A stretch of 64,000 bases of DNA from positions 32,001-96,000 of the IMG/VR virus record IMGVR_UViG_3300037400_005963; one strand, given 5' to 3'. The notes beneath the pieces are model-generated. The model ran no database searches, had not been told where the DNA came from, and worked only from the letters and a program-made list of their open reading frames with translations. Position 1 is the first letter of the stretch; every line of letters starts with the position of its first letter. Position numbers and translations under genes: made by a program. This DNA comes from a virus. Its lineage: Duplodnaviria; Caudoviricetes. This document shows positions 1-46,637 of this stretch, one piece after another.

Positions 1-197
1 CCAGTTGCCCTAATTACATTATCCTCTCCCTTATTATACAATAATGCAATCTGTGAGAATCCCCTACCAATATTTCTAAGATACATAACGGGAGAGTCGT
101 TTAAGAGACCATTCTTTTCTTCAAACGATAAAAAAGAGTGATATACTTGCATATTATCTTCTAAGGTAGAGAATTCTTTTTGTCTAAACTGTATCAA
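1..197 (-). CDS. Partial ORF (runs off the left edge) carrying the shared N-terminal leader
   Basis: Not in ORF track; read by hand from TTG at 197: (M)IQFRQKEFSTLEDNMQ..., open to base 1. Confidence 0.7.
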   Translation of the reverse strand, partial: MIQFRQKEFSTLEDNMQVYHSFLSFEEKNGLLNDSPVMYLRNIGRGFSQIALLYNKGEDNVIRAT

Positions 198-216
198 TTT
201 CTTTCTATTTTATTAA

Positions 217-248
217 AGAACTCCCCCACTTTATTACGGAGGAGTTCT
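217..248 (-). terminator. Intergenic hairpin, probable terminator
   Basis: AGAACTCC...GGAGTTCT inverted repeat just after the stop of 255..680. Confidence 0.55.
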
Positions 249-254
249 ATTTTT

Positions 255-680
255 TTACCAACGATAAGAATTATATCCCATAGATTCCATTGCGCGTGTT
301 TTTCTTTCTTCACGTGCAGCCTTTTCTTCAGCTTCTTTCTTTCTTCTTAAGTAAGCTCGATCTTTTGGGCTAGCTTTCTTATATCTTTTAATTTCATGAT
401 CAACTCTTTCCTCGGTATTTTTTTTGTGCTTCTTTCCAGCAAAATATCCTGCAGTAGCACCAAGACCTGCACCAATCGTACTACCAATTAAGGCACCTCT
501 GCTTGGATTTTTGGGGCTTGCTGCAAGACCAATAGACAAACCTGGAAGTGCACCTAATACACCACCACCAATACTTCCAGTGCGTTTAGCATGACGAACA
601 GATCTTTTCTCCTTCAGTCGATCTTCTAGATAATCTTCATCCTCCATTTTAGAGAAGAGGTTTCTTTTTAGTATAATCAT
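255..680 (-). CDS. Leader-tagged glycine-zipper protein, putative internal virion protein
   Basis: Starts MIILKRNLFS; two GxxxG-rich hydrophobic segments; basic C-terminus. Confidence 0.6.
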   Translation of the reverse strand: MIILKRNLFSKMEDEDYLEDRLKEKRSVRHAKRTGSIGGGVLGALPGLSIGLAASPKNPSRGALIGSTIGAGLGATAGYFAGKKHKKNTEERVDHEIKRYKKASPKDRAYLRRKKEAEEKAAREERKTRAMESMGYNSYRW

Positions 681-682
681 AT

Positions 683-949
683 CTATTTCTCGTTTTGAAA
701 TTTTTTACAGTATTTTAAATTTTCTCTATACCACTCATCCCTTGTCATCTTATCCTTAAAAATTTCATCATAAGCTCTATCAATGTTACAGATAAGAGGA
801 CGATCTTCATAAATAGTACAGAGATTTGTATCTGGATCTAGGTATTTACACCAACCAGTTTCTGGATCTACTAATTCAGGTGCAATTAAACCTATTCGCT
901 TACAACATTCCCCACACTTTGAACAAGGGAATTTTCTAGGTATATTCAT
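683..949 (-). CDS. YkgJ-family cysteine-cluster (Zn/Fe-chelating) protein
   Basis: CSKCGECC...CKYL...CTIYEDRPLIC pattern typical of the family. Confidence 0.85.
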   Translation of the reverse strand: MNIPRKFPCSKCGECCKRIGLIAPELVDPETGWCKYLDPDTNLCTIYEDRPLICNIDRAYDEIFKDKMTRDEWYRENLKYCKKFQNEK

Positions 950-1148: not shown

Positions 1149-1577
1149 TTAGAATTCCTCCTTCCTATCACTACATAATCCGAAAAGATAGCGATATTTT
1201 TGAGAATCTTGCATAAAAGTCTCAGTCTCACCACATAATCCTTTAAACTCTGGACCTTGTGGAATTCTTTGATAGAACTTAGTAGTCTCCTCTATGACGT
1301 GATCTATGAATTTCATAAAATCTTCATCGCCACACTCCACACACTGAACATCAGAGGGACCCATTTTTCCTAGGATTCCCATATATCCTTCAGCTATTGC
1401 ATCCTGAAAATCACTCATCAATTTGTGATATTCATCCAAGTATACGTGGATATCTTTTTTAGGTGCGGCCCAGTGAAGATTCTTACATTTATTAAGAAAT
1501 CCTGTTAAACTGCTCAAATAAGACAGAAATACGTGACGATCTTCTTCACTGTATTCCTTCTGCTTAAATTGTATCAT
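1149..1577 (-). CDS. Ferritin/Dps-like four-helix-bundle protein (DUF5856-like) with leader
   Basis: LHW...HVYLDEYH...FQDAIAEG pattern resembles Dps-type ferroxidase helices; starts MIQFKQKEYS. Confidence 0.65.
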   Translation of the reverse strand: MIQFKQKEYSEEDRHVFLSYLSSLTGFLNKCKNLHWAAPKKDIHVYLDEYHKLMSDFQDAIAEGYMGILGKMGPSDVQCVECGDEDFMKFIDHVIEETTKFYQRIPQGPEFKGLCGETETFMQDSQKYRYLFGLCSDRKEEF

Positions 1578-4534: not shown

Positions 4535-7500
4535 TTAATCCATTGCAAGACCTCCCTTAGAAGTCTTTCCTCGAGGCGGAGTTCTATAAGTTCCACCATG
4601 TTTCTGTGAAGAATCACGATATCTATTAGTCTCCTTCTTCTTTGGCTTGGTTTGGTTATCTCTCTTACTTGGTTTCTTGGTAGAAGGTTTCTTCTGATCT
4701 TTCTTCTGATCTTTCTTCTGATCTTTCTTCTGACTCTCCTTTTTCTTATCCTTCTTCTGTTTCTCCTCCGGCTTTTTCTCCTCTTTCGGTGGAGAGTTTT
4801 TCCAAGCAGCTTCTTCTTGGGTAAATTTACTTCTATCAAGATCCCACCGTGGATTTGGATTTTCTCCAACTATACTGAAAGATAATTCCAATTCATCTCC
4901 ACTTCCTTCTATTGAACCTTTTCGTTCTTCACTCATATCCTTTAAAACACATAATAAATCATATCGATTTATGGTACTTAACTGTGGAGTAAAGACATAT
5001 ATTTTTATTCTAAATGTGATGTTTTTATATAATGCTAGACAGGGAGATGTTTTATCAACCGCCGTAATCATATTTGGATTAGGTATTCCAATCATCCTTG
5101 CACGGTCAAAAATCTCAGGACTAACTTTATAACTAACATCATTTATACGTTTATTTCCACGAGCATTGAAAATCGTATAAGAGCCATCCTTCCCATCTAT
5201 TTTACAATTCTCTACTGTAAAAAGACCATCTGGAAAAGTTTCTTGAATACCTAAAAACTTTTCAGAATTGTCATAACCATAGTACTGACTTTTATGAATT
5301 TCACTGCTATAGACACTAACATACATACTCTTCTCAAAGAACTGCCTGAAAGATTTATAACTATCGTCTACCAAAGTTAAACGAAGTTCATTGGTAAATT
5401 CAATACCTCCGGGAAAGTTAATCTCTCCATCATAAATACCAAGGGACTTCATATTCATCTTTGCGCGACTTAAATCGAAGTCTACAACTGGGAACCATCT
5501 ATTGTAAGAAGTAATTACATTATGCTGAATCCAGTTTTTAGCATTCATTTCCTCAACTGAAGGAAGATATGAGCAGTATCCATTGTCCCAACCTAAATAC
5601 GGTTCAATTGTTACTTCCCAATACGAATTTGAATCTAATGTCCAAACAGTACCGTCATCCATATCGTCCACTAAAGATCTAAATTTAGTGTATTTACCTG
5701 GATGAGACATCAATGAACTATCTATAATAGCCTGATTGAAAGTACTTGGAGTCATTATAGTTTCTTCAGAGTATCCAGAATCAGTTAACTCTTCCAAAGT
5801 AGTCCACATACCGGTTCCCCGCATGTACTGATCTTTGAAGAAATAATTAATTTCTGAATTTAAATCAGCTTTTACATCCGGATTGAATGCTTCTACGAAA
5901 GAACGCTTTAAGATACTTTTTAAATTAACCGTTCCATCTTTATTAGCTAAATTGGAGGTATCTATTTCCTTTGAGATTCTCATATTAGGATCAGTCCAAC
6001 CTAACGTATTTCTCCAGTCATTTCCTGGCGGGGTTGGTCGTTCTTTCTTTTCAAATCTCTCGTTGATAAAATCAGTTACAGTTTTTGTGTAAATATCCTG
6101 AGCTTTCCAAGGATCTTCTGCATCTCTCTTTTTTGGTCTATTAAAGGGTTTAGATTTATCTGGTTTACTCACATAGCGGCCATCATTAAAGTAGGCATTC
6201 AAATTTATAGTCGCATTCTCTACTGTGGATGCCAGAAGTCCTCTCGCATTATCTAAAATATCCCCTTCGGCAGATTTACTAAATTGAGTAACATTTGAAT
6301 CTGGTAATCGAGATCTATTAATCTTTAAGACCTCGTCTCTCATGTCCCTGGCCTTAATAAGTGCCCATAATATCATATCCACGGAATGTTCCTTCATTCC
6401 TGTGAAATTATCTAGAGTTCTCCAGAATTGTCCCTTAGTATTTAGTGCATTATATCCACGTCTAACCTCATCGGCAATAAATCTAAGATAGTCATTAGCA
6501 TTTAACATGGCAGATAAATCACCTGGCATGTGAGAATAGGTTGTATAAATTTTTCCTTCACCCTTATAATATTCCTTTGCCAAGTTTTTTATATCCTCCT
6601 CTATCCTAGTAACCTGAGTAGCAGATAGGTCTGAACTAGTAAATTTACTTAAAAGACTTTGTAATTTTTGTCCCCAACCGCCGAGATCCTTAGAGCTAGC
6701 ATAATTTAATAGATAGGAACTATATTTTTGTACGTGATGTTCCGCACGGGCCTTAAATGCATTAGTTAGTACCTCCAGATCCTTTTCTGAATCAGGATCA
6801 AAATAGTAATCGTAGTCACGGGTTTTATCACTTCTTTGACCTGCGACTGGACCCTTTACTGAATATTCCGTTCTAGGTGCGAGAGATTTAGGGAGTTTTC
6901 CGCCAGTCTTTATTTGTTCTTCTGCCCGTTTAACTAGTAAATCTTCAAAAACTTCCTTCGCCTGTTCTTCAGTTAGTGGCGTTTTTCCTCTTCTAAGATT
7001 ATCTAGAGTTATTGCAACAGAATCAGCGTCACCGTCAATTATAGGAATACCGGAGATTTCACTATTTGCACGATTTTGGATCCAGTAGTTAAACAGGTTC
7101 TCTAATTCTTCTTCGCTAAAGTTTTCACTATCTCGAATAAAATTGTCTAGAATAATGGCCAAGGGATCTACCCCAGGTTTATCCATTCCCAGGGTTCTTC
7201 CAAGCTCATCTCTCGTTTGTTCTGCTCTAGTAAGAAGTAAATTATTATATAGTTGTTCGGCTTGCTCGTCAGTTAAACTACCATTATCTCTGGCATAATT
7301 ATCTAGAGTTACCGCCAGTGGATCTATTTGAGGTTTATCCGTTCCTATAGTCGGACGAATTTTTCCATCTTCTTCTAAAGGCAAATCGGTTAGGGGGAAG
7401 TCTCTATTCTCCTCATTCCTTAACCTATCCTTAGCATCGGTATTTGGATTTTGATCGGATATAGTTCCCTGATAATCCTGTTGGGCTCTTTTTAATAGAA

Positions 7501-10500
7501 GTTCATTGAAAAGTTCTTTTAAACCGCCTACACTCAGGTCTCCATTCCTAACTAAATCGTCTAATATGACTGCCAGTTGATCTATGCCCGGTTTTTCTGG
7601 ACCTACTGTTCGAACAGTCTTACCATCATCTTCTAAAGTGTGGCGAAGACTCTCTACTTTATCGGGATCATCTAAGACATTTCCGTCCTTATCATAAACC
7701 TCTCCTCTCCTGACTCCTAATACCGCATCGGGTAGGGGTTCGTGATCTGGATCAAACTGCTTACCAATCGTACCATCGACACTATACCTTATTTGATCCT
7801 CCCTGACCCGTTCTTTTGCAGCTTCTCCTCTAAAATCAAGGAAAAAATCATAGAGTGATTTTAACTGTGATTCACTGAGCTCTCCATAGGCTCCCCTAGC
7901 TAAATCATCCAGTATAACCGCAAGTTGATTTATTTGAGGTTTTTCTGGACCGGCCGTTGGAACAGTTTTTCCATCTTCCTCTAGAGAATCCCTTAATATT
8001 CCAGAATTTAAATCATCTTTTATAGCTGAAGTGATGTGATCCACTTCCGTTTTTCCATCTTCCTCCAGAGAATCTCTTAATATTCCAGAATTTAAATCAT
8101 CTTTTATAGATGACGTAGTGTGATCCTGTTCAATAAGTCCACCAGTTTCTAGATAGTCTCTTAATTGATCCCTTTCATATAGATCTTCTTTTATTTTTGT
8201 ATCTGGATTCTGGTCTGACCTGATATACTGTTTTTGTTCCTCAGCTCTTTTGAGTATGAGCTCATCATACAATGATTTAGACGAACCTTCATCTAATGAT
8301 TCACTATCTCTTGCAAGATCGTCAAAAGCTATCGCAACTGCATCACCTTCGGGATTAGTTTGTATAGTTTTTCCATCCTCCTCTAGAGAATCCCTTAATA
8401 TTCCAGAATTTAAATCATCTTTTATTGAAGAGGAAGTATGGTCTCTTTCTATTAAACCATCTGACGCTAACTCATCTCTTAGTATTCCCGAATTAAAATC
8501 ATCTTTTATGGAAGAAGTAGTGTGATCTTCTTCTATTAGACCATCTAGTTCTAATTCATCCCTGAGTTTTCCGGAATTTAAGTCATCTTTTATGGGAGAT
8601 GTGGTATAATCTTCTCCTACTATACCATCGGATTCTAGCTCATCCCTTAGTTTTCCAGAATTTAGGTCATTTTTTATAGAAGAAGGATCACTTTGATCCT
8701 CAAGTACAAGACCGTCCAGTTCTAATTCATTCCTGAGTTTTCCAGAATTTAGATCAGTTTTTATAGAAGAAGGTTGACTTTGATCTTCTAATACAAGACC
8801 ATCAGTTTCTAGATTTTCCCTTAATTTTCCAGAATCTAAATCAGTCTTTATAGGAGAAGGTTGATTTTGATCTTCTAATACGTGGCCATCTAACTCTAGC
8901 TCTGATCTTAAACCATCACGTTCAAAGAAATTTTTTTGATCCGTATTTGAATTTTGATCACTTAATATATAGCCATCAGATTTTAAATTACTTTCAAGGT
9001 GACCATGACGGAGTTGAGATTTCTGTTTTTCATCGGATAACTGATCCTCCGTGATTAATCCGTCTGTTTCCAGTTCAGTTTTTAATCCGGTATTTCTAAG
9101 ATATTTCTTTTCTTCTGTTCCAGAATCCTGATCTTCGATAGATAATTCTTGTGAGGTTAATTCTTTAGCTAATCCTTCTTCTTTCAGCCTCCTTTTTTCT
9201 TGAGTCTCTATTTCCTGATCTTTGAGAGTATAACCATCTTCAGGCAATTTCTTTTTTAATCCTTTATCATGATATCTACCTTCATAGTTAAGAAACTCTT
9301 TCTCAGGGGTATTCGAATCTTGATCAGCAATAATCTTTCCCTCTTTAGATAATTCTTTTCTTAATCCACGCCCATTACCTTCATAATTAAAATACTCTTT
9401 TTCTGGAGTATTTGAATTTTGATCAGATATGGATTTACCAGTAGGATCTAATTCATCCCTTAACCTACCAGACTTTAGATCAATTTTAATGGGAGAATTT
9501 TCTGATTGATCTATAATATAACCATCCCAGGAGATTTCTTGGGTTAACTCATCTCTAGCAAGTTTATTTTTATCTGGTGTATCTAAATTCTGGTCTTTGA
9601 TAGACTTCTCAGTCTCTCTTAATTTTTTTTCTAAACCTTCCTCCCTTAGTATATATTTTTCTCTTGTTTTCGGTTCTTGATCGACCAATACTTTTTCGTC
9701 TTTACTCAACTTTTTTGGTAAACGAGAATTTTTCAGTAACTCTTTTAAATCCGTATGAGAGTTCTGATCTCGTAGAACCAATGCTTCTGGGAGAAATTCT
9801 TTTCTAAATAATCCCTTCTGCAGTTTATGTTTTTCTTTAGTACTGTTTCGATCTCCTGATCTTTTTCCTAATTTAGGTAAAATTTCAGATAAACCATTTA
9901 CTTTATATTTACGTTTTTCTTCAGTTGTCTCATCATCTTCTCTAGGCTTACCGTACTTTTCTAGACTAGACGTTAATCCCTTATCGTTTAAACTGATTTC
10001 ATAATTTAAAATCTTTTTTGGGTCGGTATCAGGTCTTTGATCTGAAATGACCGTTCCATCGCCTGGAATTGAATCGCCTAGTATTTTTTCAGTTTCAAGT
10101 CGATACTTTTCTTCGGTCCTTATTGAATCTTTTTCAATAAAACCATCTTTGTTTAATTTTGTTTTAAAACCTTTTTCCTCAAGATATGATTTTTCAACTG
10201 AATTTATTAAATCTATTAATAATGTTCCACCTTCCGGAAGAACTTTCCTCAAGCCACGGTCATTTAATCCATTATCATCCAGATATAGTTTTTCTTCTGT
10301 ATTCGGATCTTGATCGCTTTGAAGTAAACCATCTTTCTCCAGAGAATCCTCTAACCTATTTTTCTCATTGACTTGATGTTTTTGAGCAGTTAGATAACGG
10401 TCTTCTTCAAGCTCTCCGTCGGGTACCAATGTATCGATTAAACCCTCACGACGAAAATATCTCTTCTCTTCAGTATTAAAATCTTTATCTGAACCGGGCT

Positions 10501-13500
10501 TTCCTTGTAGACTCAAATCCTTTCTTAGTCCACCGTGTTTTTCATCATTAAGAAAATCTTTTTCTTCGGTGAACGGTAATCGATCTTTTCTAATGTAACC
10601 AAGTCGAGTTAATCTCTTCCTAAGTCCTCTATCTCTTCGTAATCTTCCTTCATAGTGAAAGAATAATTTTTCTAGAGTATATGGATCCTGGTCAGATATT
10701 GTTTTCCCATCAGATAGTATAAAATCTCTTAGACCCTCCTCACTGAAATAAATTTTCTCTTCGGTATCAGTTTCTTGATCATAGATTACATAACCATCAT
10801 CTAAGAGTTCATACCTAAGACCTTCTTTGGTATAAAAGAATTTCTCTTCAGTGTTCGAGTCTTGATCTTTTATAGCATGTCCATCTTTTAGGAGAGTATC
10901 ACGTAAACCCTCATCCTTTAGATAGTTTTTTTCCTCAGTATTCGAGTCTTGATCCTTTTTGGGGTATCCATCCTCTGGGAGAGTATCACGTAAACCTTCT
11001 TCCGAGAATAAAACTTTTTCTTCTGTACCTGCGGCTTGATCATAGATAGTATAACCATCTTTTTGAAGTTCATATCTAAGACCTTCCTTGGTATAAAATA
11101 TTTTCTGATCCGCGTTCGGTTCTTGATCGGGAAGAATATATCCATCACGGACTAGTAATTCCTTAAGACCTTTTTCTGCGAATTCATATTTTTCTACAGT
11201 TTCTGAATTTTGATCATAAACAATATACCCATCCTTCTGTATTTCAACAACAAACCCTTCTTTATTAAGATAGATTTTACTGTCACTTTGAGAATATTGA
11301 TCATTTAATACAAAACCACTGTCCTTTAGTGACTGAACTAAACCTTCTTCCGAGAAGAAAATTTTCTCTTCAGTTCCTGCATTTTGATCATAGACAATAT
11401 ATCCATCACTTTGAAGTTCATATAATAATCCTTCTTCGCCAAAATATATTTTTCTAGTGGTATCCGATTTTTGATCATATATTGTATATCCATCTTCCTG
11501 AAGTTCATATTTTAAACCATCCTCATCAAAATATATTTTAGAATCAGTCAATGGATTTTGATCACTGATAAAATGACCGTCCGATTCTAAAGCATTTCTA
11601 AGGTGTTCTGGTTCTTGAACAGAAGATTCTACTGGAGAATCTACGTAACTAGACAAATCTAATGGATTTTCTCCGAGTGATAATTTATCTATCTCATCCG
11701 AGAGTTGATCTTCTCTAGGATTGTTCAGAATTTCATCTTTTGATAAATTAGTTGGTAAGATTGTGGTTTTTTCATCAACATCTATTTTATCTAAAACATT
11801 ATCTAAGTCTAAATCCTCTTCACTATCATCTAATTTATCTAATACGTCGCTTAGACTAACTTCCTCTGAACTTTCTCTCAGCTTATCGAGAGTTAATCCC
11901 AGGGTTAATGAATCATCGTCAACGTTTGTTATTCCATCTAATACAGTCTCTAAACTATTAATACCTGAATCAGGAATATCCAAACTATCAACAGATTTGT
12001 CTAACTTCGACTCAGAATCGTCTATTACATAGCTGATTTTATTTTTGTCTAATTCTATATCAGAATCTACATTATTTAAATCAACCCTCTCGTCTCCAAG
12101 AGATAAATTTAATTTTTTATCTCCTTTTGGGAAATCTGGTGAAGCTGCATCTAATGGTGGATCTATAGTATCCCCAATAGGCTTGTCTACAAAAGAATCT
12201 AAATCTTTAACTCCAGTATCAATTAATTTTCCAGACTTATCTAAAAATTTGTCTAACTCTACCTGTTTACTATTCTCTATAGTTCCTTCTTTAGAAATTT
12301 TATTTTCTAATTCCAGATCTGATTTTTTAGTATTTGGTATTATTTCTTTATTTTCTTCAAGACTAGATCCCTTATCTGCTTTAATTGATTCCCGATATCT
12401 TGAAAGTTCTTCTTCAACTTCGTGTCGAAAGGGGACTTCTTGTCTCTCCTCCCCGAGAGACGCGTCTTTTTTAGGTATATCTATAGTATCGAGGGTATCA
12501 CTAAGATTCACCTCGTCATTTTGTGACATCTCAATTGGACTATCTAAGAACGAATTGAGTTGTGTTTCTTGAATAGTTCCTCGTACTATCTCTTTATCAC
12601 CGTTAAGCTTATCTATTTTTTCAACTCCGCGGATTTTATTAAGAATTCGTTTTCCCAAAGATTGTTCTTTTGGTGGATTTTCAATAAATTCCTTATTTTT
12701 TGGTAACTCATTGAAAGAATTCTCAACATTATCAACTTTTTCTAAATCACTGGATAATTTTTGGGGAGTTTGATCCTCAGACTTAATAATATTATCTAGA
12801 TAAGACGATAAATCTACTTTCCCCGAAGGCTTAAAATCAACTGTTTCTAAAGTTTGACTTAATTTTTCTGGTTTTTTAAAAGGATCGTGGATTCTTTCCA
12901 AACTTTTTCCTAATTCAGTTTCCTTCTCATCCTTCAGAACTTTATCCAATGTATTACTTAACGTGATCTCCTCAAGGGGATTTTTAATTTTATCTACTTC
13001 ACTTGATAAAACTGTTTTTTCTTTTACCCCACCTATTTTATCTAAGTCATTGGTAAGAACGACTTTCTTCTCTTCTCCAGAAAGACGATCCACTTCCTCA
13101 GATAAAACGTTTTCCTCCCCTGATAATTTTAAATTTTCAATCGATTTAGATAAAGAATCACTTTTCTTCTCTCCGCGAATCTTCTCTAAAGAATTAGATA
13201 AGATTTCTGAATCAGTTTTCTTATTTAATTTTTCAACTGAATCGGATAAGGTGGGATTTTTTTCTACGGCGGATATTTTCTCAACCGTACTTGATAACTT
13301 CTGTGATTCTTTAGTATTTCCTCCTATTTTCTCTACGTTGTTGGATAGAGAATTGGATTCCTTATTTCCTCCTATCTTCTCTACGTTGTTGGATAGAGAA
13401 TCGGATTCCTTATTTTCTCCTGAAATCTTAATCAGTTCATTGGTTAAAGATTCTTCTCCACTAAGAAACTGAATCTTATCAATAGAACTACTAAGTGATT

Positions 13501-29568: not shown

Positions 29569-29609
29569 TGTGTAAATTAAGTAATTAATTCGTTTATGTT
29601 TTATATAAT

Positions 29610-29639
29610 GAAGGCTCCTTGATTTCTCTCAGAGCCTTC
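29610..29639 (-). other. Hairpin between scaffold and capsid genes
   Basis: GAAGGCTC...GAGCCTTC; contains CTGAGA on the minus strand. Confidence 0.5.
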
Positions 29640-29648
29640 GGGTTTATA

Positions 29649-32597: not shown

Positions 32598-32599
32598 TA

Positions 32600-35368: not shown

Positions 35369-35893
35369 TTATCTTGCTTGGTTATGTCTGTACCATTTCT
35401 TCTTGAACTCGTCCTTAGACATTTCACCATCAAGCATAGCGAGACGATCAGCCTTTCTTGCATAGTAATCGTCATAAGTACCGCCGCCACCAGACTTGCG
35501 AATCTTATTTCTAAGTGCTCTGGCACCACGATCACCAAAATAGCCAGCAGCTGTACCTGCAGCAGCACCGCCCATAGCACCAAGAGCTGCACCAGACTTG
35601 CCACCAAGCGCGTGACCAATGATACCGCCATGTACTGCACCAACAGCGCCAGTAATACCACCACGAATTTTTGATGATAATTTACCTTTGCCCTTTTCTT
35701 TTGAAAGATGCTCACGACGTGCTTTACGAAGTTTCTTAATAGTGAGTGGGTTCTTATCTTTTACGTTTGCAATAAGATCTGAATAGTTCAATCCCTCGTA
35801 GTTATCTACAGAGTCTTTCTTTGTGGTAGAAAATAATCTCTCCTCACCATTCTCATCAAGAGCAACACTAAAAACTTTTCTTCTAATATACAT
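35369..35893 (-). CDS. Leader-tagged glycine-zipper protein
   Basis: Starts MYIRRKVFSVALDENGEERLFST; GxxxG array. Confidence 0.7.
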   Translation of the reverse strand: MYIRRKVFSVALDENGEERLFSTTKKDSVDNYEGLNYSDLIANVKDKNPLTIKKLRKARREHLSKEKGKGKLSSKIRGGITGAVGAVHGGIIGHALGGKSGAALGAMGGAAAGTAAGYFGDRGARALRNKIRKSGGGGTYDDYYARKADRLAMLDGEMSKDEFKKKWYRHNQAR

Positions 35894-35917: not shown

Positions 35918-36352
35918 TTATTTCTTAAAAACTTTTCTAACGCCCTTCATGATCTTATCGGCAGGCTTTTGGAGACTCTTACCTTGACGCAACATCTTAC
36001 CTGCATCCTTAGAAACATTTTTCATCTTACCAGCAACCTTCAATGCTTTTTCCGCTAATTTAGGGTTGGTCTGAATTTCCTCAAGACGTGCTAATTCTTT
36101 AGAGGTCATACCCTTGACATCACGGTTCAGTAAATTAATAGCCTCACCTAATTGTTGTTTCTTAGCACCGATTTTCTTAGCTCCAGCAATACCAGCTGCG
36201 CCTACACCTGCAAGAGCTCCGGTAGCGATAGCAGCTTTCTTTCCCTTAGGAAGATCCTTCTTCTCTTTAGTAACTACTTCATTTGTAGAAAATAATCTTT
36301 CTTCACCATTCTCGTCAAGAGCAATACTGAAAACTTTTCTTCTAATATACAT
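35918..36352 (-). CDS. Leader-tagged basic protein with hydrophobic helix
   Basis: Starts MYIRRKVFSIALDENGEERLFST. Confidence 0.7.
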   Translation of the reverse strand: MYIRRKVFSIALDENGEERLFSTNEVVTKEKKDLPKGKKAAIATGALAGVGAAGIAGAKKIGAKKQQLGEAINLLNRDVKGMTSKELARLEEIQTNPKLAEKALKVAGKMKNVSKDAGKMLRQGKSLQKPADKIMKGVRKVFKK

Positions 36353-36454: not shown

Positions 36455-36919
36455 TTATCTTAAATTACTATTTACATTACTTCTTGGCATTCCAACAGGT
36501 TGAATTGCTTTTGGACGAGTTTTATATAAAGAGGTATTTTTAACACCTGCCTCGTTATTATTTCTATTCTCTTCCTTTCTTGCTTGAATTCTTGCTCTAT
36601 TTTGAGCATCCTTCTCTTCCTGCTCCATCTTTTGCATCTGAACCATACTCCTTCGTCTAGATATTTCATCCTTAAGTAGAAGCTGAGACTTTTGATGCTG
36701 AATTTCAATCTGTTGTCGTCTGAGCCTAGCCTGCTCTAACTGAAGGTCTCTCATAGTTAGTTCACCATTGTTGGTATCCCCAACCATTTGCATTTGCTGA
36801 GGATTATTAACTTGAGTAAGAGATGGATTCTTCTGTTGAGCCTGAGCCATCATCGACTGTTCTTGAACAGTTCCTGGGAGAGTATTAACGGCAAATAATT
36901 TACTTCTCTTTATTAACAT
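36455..36919 (-). CDS. Leader-tagged Gln-rich coiled-coil protein
   Basis: Starts MLIKRSKLFA. Confidence 0.6.
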   Translation of the reverse strand: MLIKRSKLFAVNTLPGTVQEQSMMAQAQQKNPSLTQVNNPQQMQMVGDTNNGELTMRDLQLEQARLRRQQIEIQHQKSQLLLKDEISRRRSMVQMQKMEQEEKDAQNRARIQARKEENRNNNEAGVKNTSLYKTRPKAIQPVGMPRSNVNSNLR

Positions 36920-37190
36920 CCTCTTTTTCCTCCTTTAATCTCTTTTTGAGTTTATGATGAGCATAAGAAGAGACACCTGCCACGCCTAAACCTGCTAGAG
37001 CTGCTGGACCGAGAACTTTATTATGGTGAAGAGTTTTTGTATTTCCCTTAGATTTTAAATACAAATTCATTAGATGCGCTCCACCTGCTATCCCTCCGGT
37101 TGCATACCCGGCAGTTTCAAGGTTTCTAGTTAAATCGAGAAGTTCTTCCCTTCTTTCCCTCTGTTTCTCTTTATCTCTCTTTGTTATCAT
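36900..37190 (-). CDS. Small protein with two Gly/Ala-rich hydrophobic segments
   Basis: Starts MITKR; AGYATGGIAGGA and VLGPAALAGLGVAGV. Confidence 0.6.
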   Translation of the reverse strand: MITKRDKEKQRERREELLDLTRNLETAGYATGGIAGGAHLMNLYLKSKGNTKTLHHNKVLGPAALAGLGVAGVSSYAHHKLKKRLKEEKEDVNKEK

Positions 37191-38964: not shown

Positions 38965-39075
38965 TTATTTTCCAAACTCACTGAGTCTCTTCTTAGCGTC
39001 TTCAGCAATTTTCTCTTTTGTCTTGAAATCCTCCACTTCTTCCGTGAAAGTTTTCTCTTTTAATTTTCCACACAT
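38965..39075 (-). CDS. 36-aa ORF with leader-like EKTFT
   Basis: Hand translation MCGKLKEKTFTEEVEDFKTKEKIAEDAKKRLSEFGK*; fills the gap between two structured elements. Confidence 0.45.
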   Translation of the reverse strand: MCGKLKEKTFTEEVEDFKTKEKIAEDAKKRLSEFGK

Positions 39076-39421: not shown

Positions 39422-39628
39422 TTATTTATTATTATTAAATTTATTAGCATGATAAGCCGCCAAAGCTTTCTCTGCACTTTCCTTGCTAGAATACTTTGGT
39501 TGCCACCACAGCTTTCTATCTATTGCAATAATTCCCCAATTTCCATCGGGTCTTTTTTGAACTACCCCATCATTTTTTGCCTTTTCGAGATCCTCTTTGC
39601 TGACGGGAAGCCTTCTTTTTACTAACAT
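39422..39628 (-). CDS. Small hypothetical protein with partial leader
   Basis: Starts MLVKRR. Confidence 0.6.
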   Translation of the reverse strand: MLVKRRLPVSKEDLEKAKNDGVVQKRPDGNWGIIAIDRKLWWQPKYSSKESAEKALAAYHANKFNNNK

Positions 39629-40088
39629 ATTTACTATTTAATAATCTGGCACCATCTATGTACCCTTTAACAACAGTTCTAAATCGATGGGTTGATTTTC
39701 TCAACACATCATCACTCTCAAGCTTATTATTAAGATCTTCAATAGGAGAAATTACTTTATCATCTACTACCTGAATACTTTTTACATATGTATTTCCTAA
39801 AACAGGCTGATATGAGAAAGTTTTAGACATTCTGCTCATCCTGTTAGCTGCCATGGTAGCAAGTCTATTCTCTTTTGTAAGATCACCCATAGGAATAGTG
39901 CTATTCAAATTGCCCGTGCTACTAGTAATATCTGGTGCAGGAGGAATTTTGGGACCTCCGCCAGAGGTAGTATTTATGGCGGCAGCATTAGAGGAATTTT
40001 CCTTTGGGGGAGTTGTTTTCATATTTCCCTTTTCAAAATCCGAAGCAGCCGTTGTAACAGTAAATATCTTTCTCCTTTTTATAATCAT
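39570..40088 (-). CDS. Leader-tagged protein with an internal KTFS site
   Basis: Starts MIIKRRKIFT; internal SKTFS. Confidence 0.6.
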   Translation of the reverse strand: MIIKRRKIFTVTTAASDFEKGNMKTTPPKENSSNAAAINTTSGGGPKIPPAPDITSSTGNLNSTIPMGDLTKENRLATMAANRMSRMSKTFSYQPVLGNTYVKSIQVVDDKVISPIEDLNNKLESDDVLRKSTHRFRTVVKGYIDGARLLNSKYVSKKKASRQQRGSRKGKK

Positions 40089-40663
40089 AGCTCTTTATCT
40101 CTATTCTTTTTATATTTTCGCGCAGCAAGAGTTAAACCAGTGCCGGCAGCAGCTATTGCTAAACCAGTCGGAGCTACTTTTTTCAATTTACTAGCTCTTC
40201 TACTTTCCAGAGTCTTAAAATTTTTCTTAAGATTATCTTCTAAGCCTTGAATATACCCAGCTCTTTGTCCATCTGCCTCAGCCTTCTTTTTTAAGAAGTC
40301 GTTGACTAATCTTCTCCTCTTAAAACCTTTAAAGATTCCTTTAGTATTCTGAAGACTTTCATTTAAATTATTACTTTCTTGAAGTATATTCTTGACGTAA
40401 TTATTTTCGTTTTTTCTTAGTGCATTTGTAGCTTCCTGAACTAGTTTGTTCTTCTTTCGCTGCATCCTTGAATTAACTAAGGCTGTCTTTCCAGTATAAT
40501 ATCCCCCAGCCGCTAAAGCTGTTGCACCAAGTCCAGCCGCAGTCATTTCATTAGTTCTTCTCTTTCTCTTCTTTTGCTCTTCGTAAGGAATATAAGACTT
40601 TCCTAACTCTGCGAGCTTAGTTTCGGAAGTATTAGAATAACTTTTTCGTCTTAACGTTATCAT
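40085..40663 (-). CDS. Leader-tagged basic protein with two hydrophobic helices
   Basis: Likely start MITLRRKSYS (ATG at 40663). Confidence 0.65.
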   Translation of the reverse strand: MITLRRKSYSNTSETKLAELGKSYIPYEEQKKRKRRTNEMTAAGLGATALAAGGYYTGKTALVNSRMQRKKNKLVQEATNALRKNENNYVKNILQESNNLNESLQNTKGIFKGFKRRRLVNDFLKKKAEADGQRAGYIQGLEDNLKKNFKTLESRRASKLKKVAPTGLAIAAAGTGLTLAARKYKKNRDKEL

Positions 40664-40723: not shown

Positions 40724-41029
40724 TTAATTTTTATTTTCTTTTTTCTTACTAATAAAGTGATTAGCAAGTGCGGCACCTGTACCTATTGCAGCAAGACCAA
40801 TACCTGCATTTCGACCAACCTTTATATTTCGTTTAAGGATCTCTGGACTAATCTTTCCAGCCTTTGCTAAATTCAGGGCAGTCTTCTTAGACGTGTGATA
40901 CATTGATAGTCCGCCTAATCCAGCAGCTCCTACGTAACCTGCAGTTTTGAGGTTTCTCTTTGTGTTTTGCGATAGTCCCTTTTTCTCTTCTTCTCCTAAT
41001 GCAAAACACTTATTTCTTAATACTATCAT
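40724..41029 (-). CDS. Leader-tagged small Gly/Ala-rich protein
   Basis: Starts MIVLRNKCFA. Confidence 0.65.
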   Translation of the reverse strand: MIVLRNKCFALGEEEKKGLSQNTKRNLKTAGYVGAAGLGGLSMYHTSKKTALNLAKAGKISPEILKRNIKVGRNAGIGLAAIGTGAALANHFISKKKENKN

Positions 41030-41040
41030 TTCTTTTTATT

Positions 41041-42918
41041 TTAAAATATACTTTCTAACATACTCTGAATCGCCTGACCTGATTCTTCTCTGGCTGAACG
41101 ATATAAAGAATTAATAGCAGATAACTGTTTCTTAACACCACCGCCACCTTCTTCTAAGTATTCAGAATATTTCTCATAACAGGCCCAGAGAGAACCAACC
41201 ACTGCATCTGCTATATCTTTTGTACCTGGTTTTTCACCAACTCGATCAGAATAATCAAACTCAAATGAAGAGCTAAATTCTGGATGGTCGATTTTTATGT
41301 GAGACCCATCTTTTCCATTCGACACTATTTTAAGTTCAGAACATTCACGCAAGAGAGTTTTATTATATACCATAGTAGCTCTCTCTGAATTCACAATATT
41401 CTTAAACATAAAATAAGGTTCAGTTGTTTTATCAACGGAAATCACTTTATACTTTATACCCGCTCTTTCACAGCTCTGGAATAAACCGGCGCTAGCAAAA
41501 CCATCGGCACTGACATGAATATCATAATCAAGCGAAAGTCTCTGAACTAACTGGAATAAGTGGTCAAGTGAGGTTTTCTGTCCATCTTTTCTACTTAGAC
41601 CTAAGATAATAGGGAATCTAAATTTAGGGTAAGGTGTTTTATCAAACTTATCCTTACTAATTACTTCCCCATCGTAATGACAGATACTAATACCCGTTAT
41701 ATCCTTCACTAGACCAATATCGAAGTGAATAAATAACGTCAATCCCTTTGGCACACGGAATAGCATGTGTGATATTCTATTATACAGACTATCGGATAGG
41801 TCAAAGAAATCGATGTCCTTTATAATGTCATCACATAAATTAGGAATGGTACAACAATTAACGAGATGAGATATCGAACCGTTGAAGAAGAGTTCCTTCC
41901 CTGAATATGGAAAACCGGCCAAGTCTTGAAGTGACCTAACTGGATCTAACATGAAGTTTCTCTTAACCTGAATTGGACAACTAATTATTCTATCCTTATC
42001 AAGTTCTTTCCTATCTTCTTCCTCTTCGATGACATGCGGAGATCTAACCGAATCACCACGATAGAAATCAAAAGTTAATCCTTCGCTCTCATTATATAGT
42101 TCAGGTCTAGCTACCCAATGTGAAAATTTAGCAAGGAACAATTCATCCTCGGGAACAGCCTCTTCAAATTTATCCGCCACCGAATGATCTGCATCTTTCG
42201 CCGACGAGTCAAGTACCACCGATCCAAAAGTAAAACGTTTGGCAATGAAACGAGATTGATAACGGATCAGAGTTTCACTCATCTTAGACATCGCATCGGA
42301 AGGTTTCCAGAATCCAATCTCACTTAGAACTGAGAAGATTAGCTGAGTACCTATGACGCTACCCACTGCCTTAGGGCCGCTTGAGATAAATCGAATAGCG
42401 GGATTATGATATAAATTCTTAAAATAAGGACTAACATCAAAAATTCCCCTAAAATACTGAACAAAGTCTTTATGAGCCGTTTGTTCATTAGCATGGAAGA
42501 AACCAAATGCCAACTTAACACCACCTGCCAAACCAAGAGATCTAAGACAATCAACACAACAATCAAGTCTATGATAAGTATAAAGACCCATTAATTTTGC
42601 CATAGTTGATTTACCAGATCCAATACAACCACCAAATGACACATATGGAGTTTTTGTTGTAATAGGAGTTGGGTAAATTTCTTTTCCACAGTCTTTCCAA
42701 ATTTGAAAGATTGATTTCCCCTGATTTGTTATTTGTGGTGAACCTAGAAAATAGTCATCACATAAGAATTGTTCAAATGTACAAGGGAGATGATCCATTC
42801 CTAGAAGTTTTGCACCCACTAAGAGTTTTTCACTCTCAGTTAACTTTGTATATTGTGCCTTTATATTCATAGACCCCAAGGACTTTGTAGGGTCCGTGTG
42901 ATCTACAAAATTATTCAT
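41041..42918 (-). CDS. terL: Terminase large subunit
   Basis: Walker A GCIGSGKST, coupling motif LDSS, RNase H-like FIHFDIG and C-terminal KDIADAVVG; upstream of portal. Confidence 0.85.
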   Translation of the reverse strand: MNNFVDHTDPTKSLGSMNIKAQYTKLTESEKLLVGAKLLGMDHLPCTFEQFLCDDYFLGSPQITNQGKSIFQIWKDCGKEIYPTPITTKTPYVSFGGCIGSGKSTMAKLMGLYTYHRLDCCVDCLRSLGLAGGVKLAFGFFHANEQTAHKDFVQYFRGIFDVSPYFKNLYHNPAIRFISSGPKAVGSVIGTQLIFSVLSEIGFWKPSDAMSKMSETLIRYQSRFIAKRFTFGSVVLDSSAKDADHSVADKFEEAVPEDELFLAKFSHWVARPELYNESEGLTFDFYRGDSVRSPHVIEEEEDRKELDKDRIISCPIQVKRNFMLDPVRSLQDLAGFPYSGKELFFNGSISHLVNCCTIPNLCDDIIKDIDFFDLSDSLYNRISHMLFRVPKGLTLFIHFDIGLVKDITGISICHYDGEVISKDKFDKTPYPKFRFPIILGLSRKDGQKTSLDHLFQLVQRLSLDYDIHVSADGFASAGLFQSCERAGIKYKVISVDKTTEPYFMFKNIVNSERATMVYNKTLLRECSELKIVSNGKDGSHIKIDHPEFSSSFEFDYSDRVGEKPGTKDIADAVVGSLWACYEKYSEYLEEGGGGVKKQLSAINSLYRSAREESGQAIQSMLESIF

Positions 42919-42924: not shown

Positions 42925-43308
42925 TTAAACTACACTATTTAATACACTTTCTCGTATTGCCTTTTTTGCCTTTGCTGAATTTTCTAGCAAGTTTTCCCTA
43001 CAGCGTCTTCTGTGATAGGCTAAATCTTGGGGTCTCATATTCAAAAATCCATGGATTGGCCCTAAAATACGTCTACCCGAATGTATCTTTCCTTCCAAAA
43101 CTCCCTCAGTAAAAGGAAGACGATAAGAAGATTTTATAGCCTTTACATTCCCCTTTCTCCAAAGAAACTCTGTTCTATTTACCATGTCATTATCTAGTCC
43201 CCTTAACTGAACTGCAAGATATCTTCGTTTATCTCTTAGTGCTTTTTGTTGAGCAGGAGTTAATCCCCTGTAGTCAGCAAAAGTAAATAATTTTCTCTTT
43301 ACTATCAT
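42925..43308 (-). CDS. Leader-tagged basic protein
   Basis: Starts MIVKRKLFT; N-terminal half resembles 45928..46242 (DY.G....Q...LR..R..LA..L). Confidence 0.6.
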   Translation of the reverse strand: MIVKRKLFTFADYRGLTPAQQKALRDKRRYLAVQLRGLDNDMVNRTEFLWRKGNVKAIKSSYRLPFTEGVLEGKIHSGRRILGPIHGFLNMRPQDLAYHRRRCRENLLENSAKAKKAIRESVLNSVV

Positions 43309-43352
43309 AATATATTATTCAAATAAATAAGTCCTAAAACTCCCAAATTTTA

Positions 43353-45143
43353 TCATCTACGGTATGGAATTCGTGGATCAGCATACGAGGGATAATATGA
43401 AGAATATGGATAATTATATCTCAAATACCTTGTAATATCCATAACATATGGTGAATGAGAAAGTCTATTAGATAATAATGGGGCATTTCTTAATTGACGA
43501 CCGCCCCCCATATTAGATCTCGGAGGCCTTGTTTTAATTAAATTTATTAATCGATTAGTAAGCGCATAATCATGACGTCTATCTCCAGTATTAGGATTAT
43601 AGTAACGATTACCGTTAGGATTGCCATATAATCTAGTATTAATTTCCGGCGCAATCCACCTATAAGGAGAAAGATTCATGGCGCCTTTAAGATCTGCATA
43701 ATTCATTGTCAGATAGGCAGAAACCATATTACTACTACCAGCCTTAGGGGCAGAGTTCACGTATTTATGATACCAACCCTTACTTTTGTCTAACAAATTA
43801 AGCGATTCATTAGAGGCCCATTCCCTTGTCCAAGTTTTTGGTTTAAGATTGGCGGCCTTATTCATTTCATGAGCTAGTCTCGGATAATGAATAAGTGGTC
43901 TCGATACGTATTTTTTGAGCGGCTCACGAACATACGGAGTTACAATTTTATTAGTAAAAGGTTGAGCTATTTTTTCCTCAAACAGACCTTTGCCACTATT
44001 TATATATGTCGATCCTTTGCTAGCTAGGTTAGTTACCGTAGGTCTTACTCCACTCGTTAATCCTCGAGCACCAGCTTCCGCATAAAGATATGGCTTTACA
44101 ACAAGCTTATCAACGCCCTTGTTGAACGCGTTCTTTGCATAATTAGTAGCAGCACCGGGAAGACGGGTTAGGATTGCCGCTTGAGCCGGATTTAAAAATT
44201 TTCCAAATTGGGTAGATATCTTACCACCTATATACTTTCTTGCTTGATTAGTATATTTACTAACATATCCACCTGTAGCATCAATGATAGATCCTATTCC
44301 ACTATTTATTTTACTGAATGTATTAGGTGCAATACTATTTCCTAGATAACGCATAGTATTTCCTGTCTGCTTCCAAGCCCATTTACCAAACTTTGGGCCA
44401 AGAATATCAGCCAGGCCTGTTACAGTAGCATCTTTTGCAAATCCGGATAATCCAGTGTCTACTTTTATCTCCTTCATTTCAGAGAGAGACGTATCATTTA
44501 ATATATTACTAAGATACTTTGCCATTTCACGATCAGTGGCTGACCAAGTAGACTGACGCTTTCTCAGATCCGACAAATCTTTGCTTGCCTGTGTTCTAAT
44601 ATTCTCTCTCCACCAATTTTCTCTTTTATCGTAATTAACTCCACGTGTATTATTATATAAATCTTTTCCCCAATGCCAGCCCAAACCAGCAGCAACAGAT
44701 TTTGAATTTTTTGACCAAACTGCTATATCTGCTAAAACATTGATACCCTTATTTGCATAATCAAGCATCGTATGCAAAAATCCCGGATCTTTATATTTAT
44801 TATAGGTCTGATAATATACACTGTTTAAAAGTCCTGCTTTTTTAAGAAGATCCATATTTACCTTCTGATTGGGACTAAATAACTTAGGAGTAGGTACCGC
44901 CGGAGATGATGAACTCGTAGGAAGTTTCAAAGCCCCCCGATTCTTTCCAGGAGTGTTAAAAACAACTTTATTTGTTTTTGGATCTATGTAATAAATCGGG
45001 TTTTGGGGCGCAGCTTTTTTTCTATTCCAAGGTAAATAAGGATTATTGTTGAAACTATTTCTACTGTTATTCATCAGTTGGGCATTTTTCCAAGCCTGAG
45101 TACCTGGGATCGCCCACCCATAAGGATTTCTTGGAACTGCCAT
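43353..45143 (-). CDS. 596-aa very basic Asn/Pro/Tyr-rich protein of unknown function
   Basis: Long ORF with few acidic residues. Confidence 0.6.
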   Translation of the reverse strand: MAVPRNPYGWAIPGTQAWKNAQLMNNSRNSFNNNPYLPWNRKKAAPQNPIYYIDPKTNKVVFNTPGKNRGALKLPTSSSSPAVPTPKLFSPNQKVNMDLLKKAGLLNSVYYQTYNKYKDPGFLHTMLDYANKGINVLADIAVWSKNSKSVAAGLGWHWGKDLYNNTRGVNYDKRENWWRENIRTQASKDLSDLRKRQSTWSATDREMAKYLSNILNDTSLSEMKEIKVDTGLSGFAKDATVTGLADILGPKFGKWAWKQTGNTMRYLGNSIAPNTFSKINSGIGSIIDATGGYVSKYTNQARKYIGGKISTQFGKFLNPAQAAILTRLPGAATNYAKNAFNKGVDKLVVKPYLYAEAGARGLTSGVRPTVTNLASKGSTYINSGKGLFEEKIAQPFTNKIVTPYVREPLKKYVSRPLIHYPRLAHEMNKAANLKPKTWTREWASNESLNLLDKSKGWYHKYVNSAPKAGSSNMVSAYLTMNYADLKGAMNLSPYRWIAPEINTRLYGNPNGNRYYNPNTGDRRHDYALTNRLINLIKTRPPRSNMGGGRQLRNAPLLSNRLSHSPYVMDITRYLRYNYPYSSYYPSYADPRIPYRR

Positions 45144-45144
45144 A

Positions 45145-45840
45145 TTAACTATTCTCCTTTCTAAATAATTTCATAAACTCATCTATGGTTCTTTGTGCAT
45201 CGGGATCACCAAGATCGACATCAGTTTCATCCTCTGCTATTTTCTTTAATTCTAGACTATCACCAGTTATTTCTATTTCATTCTTCAATTGACTAAGTTG
45301 ATCAATATACTGAATTAACTTCTCAACTACTATGAAATAATCTGCACTAGATAATCCTTCATTTCCAAATAATCTCTGTGGATCTAATACCCAATCGATG
45401 GTAAGGGATAGTTTTTGAATTAAATGAAGATATAAGATGGGTTTTATTGATTTATATAGTTTCGATACATATAATTCAAGAATTCGGCGAGATTTATCAT
45501 CACTAACTAGGACTAAGGATTTTGATAAGTCCTGGAGATTTAAATGAAGATTAAGGCCGTATTCTTTATTGTAATTTGATAAAACTTGATTCAATGAATT
45601 TTCCATCTCTTTAACTTTAAGAGATGTTTGATTCTTTGCTATTGCACTCGCATCTAAGATCATATTCTTAGCAGCACTAGGAAGAATTGGTGCTCCAGTG
45701 ACTATTGATTTTAACTCGCCGGGATCCATTTCCTCTACTACTGCATCATCTATATAATCACCTTGGACATCAACCTTCCCTTCTTTTTGAAGCAGTTCCT
45801 TTTTAAATTCAGGATCTGCAAAAGGATTGATTGCTTCCAT
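45145..45840 (-). CDS. Helical hypothetical protein (small terminase candidate by position)
   Basis: 231 aa, upstream of terL; no motif recognised. Confidence 0.35.
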   Translation of the reverse strand: MEAINPFADPEFKKELLQKEGKVDVQGDYIDDAVVEEMDPGELKSIVTGAPILPSAAKNMILDASAIAKNQTSLKVKEMENSLNQVLSNYNKEYGLNLHLNLQDLSKSLVLVSDDKSRRILELYVSKLYKSIKPILYLHLIQKLSLTIDWVLDPQRLFGNEGLSSADYFIVVEKLIQYIDQLSQLKNEIEITGDSLELKKIAEDETDVDLGDPDAQRTIDEFMKLFRKENS

Positions 45841-45927
45841 ACACTTTAATAATTATTTTATATAATTAGACCTACCCCTCCCATTGAAAGGAAGTCCCAA
45901 AATTAGACGGGGAAGGTTATATATTGA

Positions 45928-46242
45928 TTAGCGCTTACTGTTTCTAAGTACTAGGTTTTTCAATCTAGTGAAACCTTTATTATATTTCTTTGCTATTGAT
46001 CTCTCAGCATCTTTTGCTAAGTTATCATAAAACATTTGAGATCTCCAAGCAGTATTTGCGCGATAATGTGAATCACCAACTTTTTTGGCAATTTGAGCAG
46101 TTTCATTAATGGCTTGTCTAGACTGATTTAAACCCTGTGCTAGATTATTTCTTCTAACCCTTAATTCCTCGGCAGCCTGATTTCCATACCTTTTCGCAAA
46201 ATCTCCATAATTGAAGAATAATTTATTTCTTAATACTATCAT
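45928..46242 (-). CDS. Leader-tagged basic protein
   Basis: Starts MIVLRNKLFF. Confidence 0.6.
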   Translation of the reverse strand: MIVLRNKLFFNYGDFAKRYGNQAAEELRVRRNNLAQGLNQSRQAINETAQIAKKVGDSHYRANTAWRSQMFYDNLAKDAERSIAKKYNKGFTRLKNLVLRNSKR

Positions 46243-46637
46243 ATTAATCCCTCCTGCAATGCTTGTCGTCTAGCAGCATTTAAACTTCTCTTATTTTGAA
46301 CAGCAATGGTATTTTTCCCCATTCCATCAACTACCTTACTTAATCCATTCTGTGTACCATTCTGGATATTTCTAGCAGCCTCTCGAATATTTTTTATAGT
46401 ATGTCTTGCTTGAACTCTATCTGCAATTCCCTCAATATTGTTTAATGAATTGCTTATATTTCTTTGACCGCCTCTTTTTAAACCAGCAACAACACCACGA
46501 AGACCCCTTCGACTACCTGGCTCTAATGCAGTTTGTTCTAGGGAAGGCAATAATTTAAGCCCATACTTTAGATTTGCTTTCTTTAATGCCCCTCTTCTAG
46601 CTGCACAGGTAAAATTTTTATTTCTCAGTATAATCAT
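46239..46637 (-). CDS. Leader-tagged basic protein
   Basis: Starts MIILRNKNFT. Confidence 0.65.
   Translation of the reverse strand: MIILRNKNFTCAARRGALKKANLKYGLKLLPSLEQTALEPGSRRGLRGVVAGLKRGGQRNISNSLNNIEGIADRVQARHTIKNIREAARNIQNGTQNGLSKVVDGMGKNTIAVQNKRSLNAARRQALQEGLI

Follow-up and report, generated by a model that had tools for sequence, protein, structure and literature searches.

In phage T4, the first 10 residues of the internal protein IPIII suffice for packaging; residues 4 and 7 act in targeting and residues 8 and 10 in processing, and when position 10 is changed, cleavage stops whereas packaging does not (PMC9026906). The T4 protease gp21 cuts the gp22 scaffold into fragments, takes an N-terminal piece off gp23 and also trims itself, while the basic internal proteins co-purify with gp22 (PMC9026906). 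Here we analyse a short N-terminal leader, below also called the tag, that is shared by 27 genes in a 64,000-nucleotide stretch of a tailed phage genome (the window). The phage is an uncultured jumbo phage of the bovine gut, and the window comprises bases 32001-96000 of the 156.5-kb IMG/VR record IMGVR_UViG_3300037400_005963 (35% G+C, CheckV completeness 42%). A preliminary description of the window had likened this leader to the capsid-targeting signal of T4. We propose that it is probably a T4-type capsid-targeting propeptide of head-internal proteins, which would be removed by the phage's own prohead protease.

Other phages process or load head proteins by related means. The jumbo phages phiKZ and SPN3US use a diverged gp21-like protease (gp175 and gp245, respectively) that processes many head or ejection proteins and removes its own C-terminal part. 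In SPN3US, Ser is preferred at P1', and nine substrates are known while 42 head proteins remain uncut (PMC10052503). In Staphylococcus phage 80alpha, the host protease Prp cuts between Phe and Ala, taking 13-14 N-terminal residues off the capsid and scaffold proteins, and the same motif is found on non-homologous proteins of other phages (PMC5744158). An N-terminal signal of the P1 protein DarB is sufficient for head entry and delivery to the host (PMC9024508). DarB differs from the case described here in being a single, large, helper-dependent client, with no short tag common to many proteins and no evidence that its signal is a protease site.

Window positions 1-46637 (genome 31.8-78.7 kb) form a single minus-strand block of 48 genes, followed by small genes that are mostly on the plus strand. 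On the low-coordinate side of the window lies a further block of 22 genes (genome 1-31.8 kb), by its position a candidate tail module. All 28 N-termini that had been listed earlier were found: 26 begin ATG open reading frames (ORFs) of 57-448 amino acids (aa), one follows a TTG start, and one belongs to a doubtful mini-ORF, which leaves 27 leaders. Aligned on their aromatic residue (P1), these follow the consensus M-I-[IV]-[LF]-[RK]-x-K-x-[FY]-[STGA]. P1 is Phe or Tyr in 27/27, P3 is Lys in 25/27, P5 is Arg or Lys in 26/27, and the next residue, P1', is small in 26/27. The consensus leader has ten residues, with a range of 7-12.

We built a position matrix from the leaders themselves and regarded genes with a score of at least 8 as tagged; scores across genes were clearly bimodal. 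The threshold was reached by 27/48 genes of the block against 0/144 elsewhere (Fisher p = 3.7e-20), by 0/22 genes of the candidate tail module and by no plus-strand gene. An untrained regular expression for the core of the motif, [KR]-x-[FY]-[SA], within the first 13 residues gave a similar picture, with 25/48 against 3/144 genes (p = 4e-15). The leader is thus not equally common at other gene starts, and its reported absence from the plus strand holds. So does the observation that the sequences behind it are mostly unrelated, as an all-against-all BLASTP search of the tagged proteins returned just three related pairs. The tagged ORFs are listed below in window coordinates, with orthologues in the two whole relatives that we compared, G004 (183 kb, terminal repeats) and G002 (401 kb, terminal repeats, 100% complete). 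The last two lines give the mini-ORF and an ORF with half a tag.

1-197, minus strand: tagged ORF, 128 aa in the genome; TTG start at 197, runs past the window start; matrix score 24.8
255-680, minus strand: tagged ORF, 141 aa; glycine-zipper domain; mature isoelectric point (pI) 10.0
1149-1577, minus strand: tagged ORF, 142 aa; DUF5856-like (31.7 bits, below the Pfam cut-off of 34.6 bits); G004 orthologue tagged
14249-14611, minus strand: tagged ORF, 120 aa; tagged orthologues in G004 and G002
14608-15825, minus strand: tagged ORF, 405 aa; tagged orthologues in G004 and G002
15831-16385, minus strand: tagged ORF, 184 aa; tagged orthologues in G004 and G002
20189-20932, minus strand: tagged ORF, 247 aa; best match in G002 tagged, best match in G004 at 6.8, just below the threshold
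22188-22619, minus strand: tagged ORF, 143 aa; 12-residue form of the leader; tagged orthologues in G004 and G002
22625-23971, minus strand: tagged ORF, 448 aa; four more core sites inside against 1.1 expected
23994-24296, minus strand: tagged ORF, 100 aa; 45% Gly+Ala
24303-24515, minus strand: tagged ORF, 70 aa; short 7-residue form of the leader
24512-25084, minus strand: tagged ORF, 190 aa; 8/8 orthologues tagged; leader-like or core sites also in a variable internal linker
26603-27157, minus strand: tagged ORF, 184 aa; paralogue of 27173-27598
27173-27598, minus strand: tagged ORF, 141 aa; paralogue of 26603-27157
27602-27775, minus strand: tagged ORF, 57 aa
27778-28026, minus strand: tagged ORF, 82 aa
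34794-35234, minus strand: tagged ORF, 146 aa; pI 11.4; lineage-specific
35369-35893, minus strand: tagged ORF, 174 aa; glycine-zipper 2TM domain
35918-36352, minus strand: tagged ORF, 144 aa; only its first 23 residues in common with ORF 35369-35893
36455-36919, minus strand: tagged ORF, 154 aa
39570-40088, minus strand: tagged ORF, 172 aa; lineage-specific
40085-40663, minus strand: tagged ORF, 192 aa; lineage-specific
40724-41029, minus strand: tagged ORF, 101 aa; lineage-specific
42925-43308, minus strand: tagged ORF, 127 aa; lineage-specific
45928-46242, minus strand: tagged ORF, 104 aa; lineage-specific
46239-46637, minus strand: tagged ORF, 132 aa; pI 11.6; lineage-specific
approximately 38965-39075, minus strand: doubtful 36-aa mini-ORF, behind the 22nd N-terminus of the earlier list
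25081-25461, minus strand: 126-aa ORF with the first half of the leader and without the cleavage core

A common gene start of this kind could in principle be a nucleic-acid signal, such as a translation-initiation enhancer or AT-rich downstream box, or have spread through the late genes as a recombination cassette. The leader codons are all A/T-rich, and the tagged genes all lie in one late transcription block. Against this, Ser at P1' is encoded about equally by two disjoint codon families (AGY 8, TCN 7), and the codons for Phe (TTT 11, TTC 9), Lys (AAA 15, AAG 9), Leu, Ile and Arg vary as well. Pairwise identity among the leaders falls from 0.61 at the first codon position to 0.57 at the second and 0.46 at the third, and the 27 nt upstream of the tagged genes are hardly more similar to each other (0.36) than the background (0.30). 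Because Ser occurs in both codon families and third positions are the least conserved, the leader is conserved as an amino-acid sequence and not as DNA. Moreover, the same peptide motif recurs at internal positions of proteins (see below), while the highly expressed, untagged capsid and scaffold genes and all plus-strand genes lack the leader. We therefore consider a signal in the nucleic acid hardly credible.

The core of the leader was also found inside the proteins of four adjacent genes, in the order protease, Zn-ribbon protein, scaffold and capsid:

33397-34656, minus strand: prohead protease candidate, 419 aa; gp21/assemblin fold in residues 1-164, helical C-terminal domain
32600-33400, minus strand: Zn-ribbon protein, 266 aa; two tandem core sites at the N-terminus, conserved in eight relatives
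29649-32597, minus strand: acidic scaffold-like protein, 982 aa; pI 4.1, 30% Asp+Glu
28147-29568, minus strand: putative major capsid protein, 473 aa; lacks a leader in this clade

With expected counts obtained by shuffling, the scaffold-like protein stands out with 19 core motifs against 1.1 expected. It contains three 348-nt tandem repeats (30193-31229), each of which encodes three core sites. The Zn-ribbon protein has five core sites beyond its first 14 residues (0.56 expected), and the protease candidate has four between residues 191 and 263 (0.99 expected). The latter are kept in 6/6 full-length relatives that were aligned and lie in a variable linker directly after the N-terminal domain. 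No protein of the clade is better conserved than the putative capsid protein (79% mean column identity). Nine relatives share both of its core sites, at residues 36-39 and 58-61, without change, and the second falls exactly at the border between a variable N-terminus and a body that is near-invariant after residue 61. Distant members of the capsid family keep core sites in the same N-terminal region, and many of them start with a short leader that ends in the core. Both the gene order of protease, scaffold and capsid and the placement of the motif match head maturation in T4. Separately from these sites, the scaffold-like protein carries two EF-hand calcium-binding motifs at approximately 30057-30194 (Pfam EF-hand_5, E-value of 1.4e-10); calcium binding by a scaffold would be unusual.

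The protease candidate was recognised by its predicted structure. The AlphaFold2 model of the 419-aa protein has a mean predicted local distance difference test (pLDDT) of 69, with values above 80 across much of the core of the N-terminal domain. The top match of residues 1-164 is T4 gp21 (5jbl_A), with a VIA Z of 10.8, a root-mean-square deviation of 3.4 over 129 residues and a Foldseek probability of 1.0 for 5jbl, followed by the proteases of varicella-zoster virus (Z 8.8) and human cytomegalovirus (Z 7.5). A complex predicted between protease residues 1-190 and the N-terminal 60 residues of the 190-aa tagged family scored 0.19 with a mark of 0.32, which is evidence neither way.

The N-terminal β-strand of the protease candidate (residues 1-10) is itself leader-like. 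Its matrix score of 7.5 is just below the threshold, and in two relatives the strand ends in a perfect K-L-F-S. A site near the N-terminus of T4 gp21 has been proposed as a self-cleavage site. The strand could likewise be a self-cleavage site, or it could hint that leaders bind to the enzyme as an added strand.

The internal sites also bear on whose enzyme would cut the leader. As in 80alpha, where a short N-terminal motif on non-homologous proteins is cut after Phe and before a small residue, the leader could mimic the extended N-terminus of ribosomal protein L27 from a Firmicutes host, whose cysteine protease Prp would then cut it. It resembles the L27 extension in length and also ends in an aromatic and a small residue, and Shine-Dalgarno-like AGGAGG sequences lie upstream of several genes. 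The host is possibly a Firmicute that has Prp: a 376-kb contig of a relative is binned in a 'Bacilli bacterium' metagenome-assembled genome (MAG) from water-deer omasum, which has a Prp-like gene in the order L21-Prp-L27-Obg on a different, 73-kb contig (L046, G006 contig 25, 1486-2417). However, this host link comes from co-binning alone, which is weak evidence. At P3, the leader has its most constant residue, Lys, in 25/27 cases where the L27 extension of the MAG and the 80alpha scaffold protein site have Gln, and its P1' is Ser or Thr rather than Ala (the L27 of the MAG reads L-Q-L-F-A-S-K-K-G). The 80alpha system further combines one site per protein and two to four clients with a host enzyme, the phage having no protease of its own, whereas the present phage encodes an enzyme with a gp21-type serine-protease fold and has many internal sites. 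Its 19 scaffold sites and four protease-linker sites follow the pattern of a phage prohead protease, which is not seen in 80alpha, and no Prp was found in a six-frame search of the record. Since sites are this dense in the scaffold and the protease linker, we favour the phage's own enzyme and regard cleavage by Prp as improbable.

The internal sites differ from the leaders in one respect. Those in the scaffold are preceded by acidic residues and lack the hydrophobic-basic half of the leader, and the whole nine-position leader matrix finds few matches inside proteins. The leader thus appears to be a two-part signal whose hydrophobic-basic half is specific to the N-terminus. Conversely, the family of ORF 25081-25461 keeps M-I-x-F-[RK]-x-K in 9/9 genomes examined and never has the aromatic-small pair. 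Because the internal sites lack the N-terminal half and one orthologue family keeps this half without the core, a separate targeting role for the N-terminal half is suggested, if only indirectly. Three more small ORFs resemble 25081-25461 (956-1147, 36900-37190 and 39422-39628).

The family with half a tag also fits an alternative in which the leader is never cleaved and stays in place as an N-terminal signal, for instance for a chaperone, a membrane or the order of assembly; its end would then resemble the internal sites through a shared binding partner and not through proteolysis. There is precedent for such signals, as T4 gp23 has an N-terminus that sends proteins to GroEL (cited in PMC10052503), and the 80alpha scaffold requires its N-terminal peptide for assembly but can do without the cleavage of that peptide (PMC5744158). 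On the other hand, the core sits exactly where T4-like heads are cut during maturation: it occurs many times in the scaffold, it follows the protease domain and it marks the edge of the conserved capsid body. P1' is also limited to small residues. In addition, the site of the 190-aa tagged family recurs in its variable linker, which an alignment shows to separate two conserved domains. We judge an uncleaved leader to be unlikely.

We therefore return to a cleavable propeptide, for which the following steps are proposed. The C-terminal half of the leader, K-x-[FY]-[STGA], would be the recognition site of the protease encoded at 33397-34656. The same site would serve to fragment the acidic scaffold, to trim approximately 61 N-terminal residues off the capsid protein and to free the protease from its C-terminal domain. 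The N-terminal half, M-I-[IV]-[LF]-[RK], would most likely help small, basic clients to bind the acidic core of the scaffold, or the protease, while the shell is still open. Once assembly is complete, the enzyme would probably cut between the aromatic and the small residue. This scissile bond is a guess from two observations: P1' is restricted to small residues, and assemblin-like enzymes prefer Ser at that position. In this way, 16-36 mature proteins per genome would be freed in the head beside the DNA, and they may exit with the DNA at infection.

The likeness to T4 extends to a peptide of approximately ten N-terminal residues on small, basic and dissimilar proteins predicted to be head-internal, with early residues that would act in targeting and last residues in processing, to the gp21 fold, to the predicted use of the same site for an acidic scaffold and approximately 60 N-terminal capsid residues, and to a fast turnover of cargo genes. 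The T4 motif, however, is L/I-x-Glu, whereas the motif found here is basic and aromatic and ends in [FY]-[ST], and is known from sequence alone. Three internal proteins of T4 carry a capsid-targeting sequence (CTS), with Alt and a few core proteins also being processed, against 27 clients in this partial genome. Further, no sequence similarity to gp21 is seen here, and the link to gp23 is weak and transitive. The phiKZ and SPN3US enzymes cut after Glu in X-X-Glu and remove mutually dissimilar propeptides of 20-254 residues (PMC10052503), while the present motif has no conserved Glu and the tag is a uniform 7-12 residues.

Several points weigh against our interpretation. His49 and Ser134 of the protease candidate are invariant in eight sequences, but loop residues 49-80 have pLDDT values below 50, and the catalytic role of the two residues is assumed. 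The candidate is identified by fold only, as Peptidase_S77 (PF03420) gave no Pfam match to the 419-aa protein or in the six-frame search of the record. The capsid assignment is putative and draws on gene order, conservation and a transitive link, a weak precomputed Pfam Gp23 match of one distant family member. The AlphaFold2 model of the capsid protein, with a mean pLDDT of 42, was unusable. Nor did a tblastn search with this protein against 50,697 phage records return a match, and the phage has no cultured relative. The N-terminus of the scaffold-like protein ends in [ML]-F-[SA] but usually lacks Lys at P3, which leaves the specificity rule incompletely defined. In mature form, seven of the tagged proteins are acidic or near-neutral (pI of at most 6.5), and electrostatic docking is therefore not the whole story. 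Finally, we infer cleavage and removal of the tag, the scissile bond, packaging, and ejection into the host from sequence.

The analogy with T4 drawn in the preliminary description is strengthened by the core sites in scaffold, protease and capsid, by the gp21-fold protease and by the small basic clients, with packaging, tag removal and injection still predicted. Its proposal of a different, basic/aromatic tag on a much larger cargo set stands as regards the new motif and the 27 clients, with the amendment that the leader reads first of all as a protease-site propeptide. The principle is known from the T4 CTS and the 80alpha Prp motif; what would be new is the motif, the changed protease specificity and the unusually large client set.

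We next consider the clients themselves. Without their leaders, the tagged proteins have a median length of 143 aa and a median pI of 10.1, with pI above 9 in 20/27. This compares with a median pI of 5.2 for the untagged genes of the same block and 5.8 for the phage's other small genes. By analogy with T4, basic clients and a very acidic scaffold suggest electrostatic co-assembly. Pfam recognised glycine-zipper domains in two tagged proteins and DUF5856, below the cut-off, in one, and nothing else. Among the 46 tagged proteins of the two relatives, two are GNAT acetyltransferases. An 820-aa GDSL-lipase protein of G002 was considered as cargo and rejected, as its tag is weak and it lies outside the head cluster.

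To see how the tag has evolved, we turned to relatives. Eight IMG/VR loci whose capsid proteins are 70-80% identical have the same orthologues tagged. G004 has 33-36 tagged genes, all within 5-56 kb, and G002 has about 16, mostly within 150-205 kb. In both, the genes that match the genome 1-31.8 kb block carry no tag. Nine orthologue groups are tagged in every relative with a match, and one more is tagged in G002 only. The tag sequence itself drifts between orthologues, as in the 143-aa protein, where a 12-residue form gives way to a 10-residue form. By contrast with this shared set, no orthologue was detected in G004 or G002 for 14 of the window's tagged genes. Such a mix of a stable core and rapidly changing additional genes is comparable to the variable loci for internal proteins in T4-like phages.

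Two further observations concern the leaders of relatives. On the minus strand of G004 at 5-26 kb, approximately 22 consecutive genes are tagged with a very uniform leader, M-I-I-L-R-Q-K-x-[FY]-S; this array appears to be an enlarged cargo island, one that the genome of the window lacks. In two very distant contigs of the capsid family (L053 and L052), small neighbouring ORFs begin with basic leaders of greater length, ending in N-F-S or R-x-F-[SA], and the N-terminal region of the capsid protein keeps x-F-S. Because of these leaders and this capsid motif, the tag and protease seem to be an ancient and co-varying pair.

If the proposed propeptide is real, the specificity of a very diverged prohead protease can be read from sequence in a clade of 183-427-kb jumbo phages of the ruminant gut. 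The sequence would then also give the maturation sites of capsid, scaffold and protease, and a complete list of head-internal, possibly injected proteins that are otherwise unannotatable. As the lineage-specific half of the tagged proteins turns over fast, they would be prime candidates for host takeover or anti-defence. A short capsid-targeting propeptide would, moreover, be older and wider than the T4 family, with dozens of clients, and tag and protease specificity would co-evolve. A bolder version, which we put forward only tentatively, is that a widespread lineage of uncultured rumen jumbo phages shares a general loading system in which a gp21-fold protease has switched from Glu to aromatic-Ser, 16-36 fast-evolving and mostly basic proteins per genome, among them glycine-zipper proteins and the GNAT acetyltransferases of relatives, are loaded into the head and injected with the DNA as an early takeover and anti-defence arsenal, and the first half of the leader is a portable packaging signal independent of cleavage.

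In metagenomes, the putative capsid protein has more than 637 homologues, the longest contigs that carry them reaching 427 kb, and its family comprises 137 clusters at 50% identity. Several studies of the bovine gut yielded metagenomes with near-identical DNA, which some metatranscriptomes also contain. For the head-gene stretch 28147-34656, 51-73% of sampled words were present in contigs of two bovine gut metatranscriptome runs, which is compatible with active infection in the rumen.

Annotation searches added little for the rest of the genome. Pfam and PHROGs searches were unproductive for the ten largest proteins of the window, for eight from the block that precedes it and for ten distant capsid homologues. 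Two proteins from elsewhere in the genome matched only an ATPase and a VWA/HNH-like family. The leader had earlier been described as absent from sheath, tube and terminase genes, yet Pfam, PHROG and PDB-sequence matches identified none of these three, and no portal was identified either. Neither phmmer nor profile searches of PDB sequences found anything for the 625-, 961-, 596- and 473-aa proteins, an ESM Atlas look-up of the 596-aa protein gave no result, and the six-frame search of the record had no match to Phage_sheath_1C, Peptidase_S77 or Peptidase_Prp. No tRNA genes were found in the window. The only terminase candidate lies in the tagged block:

41041-42918: 625-aa Walker-A protein without the leader

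The start of the tagged block has a giant ORF on either side, one of 3093 aa (window 4535-13816) and one of 3879 aa (genome 19134-30773), both on the minus strand. No family was recognised for either, and their best matches in relatives are much shorter (845-1828 aa), covering 12-20% of the giants. Lastly, the plus-strand early region contains several small paralogue families (window 54658-62040 and genome 100590-101394), including one of four members with a conserved N-terminal region of approximately 130 aa and another of three members.

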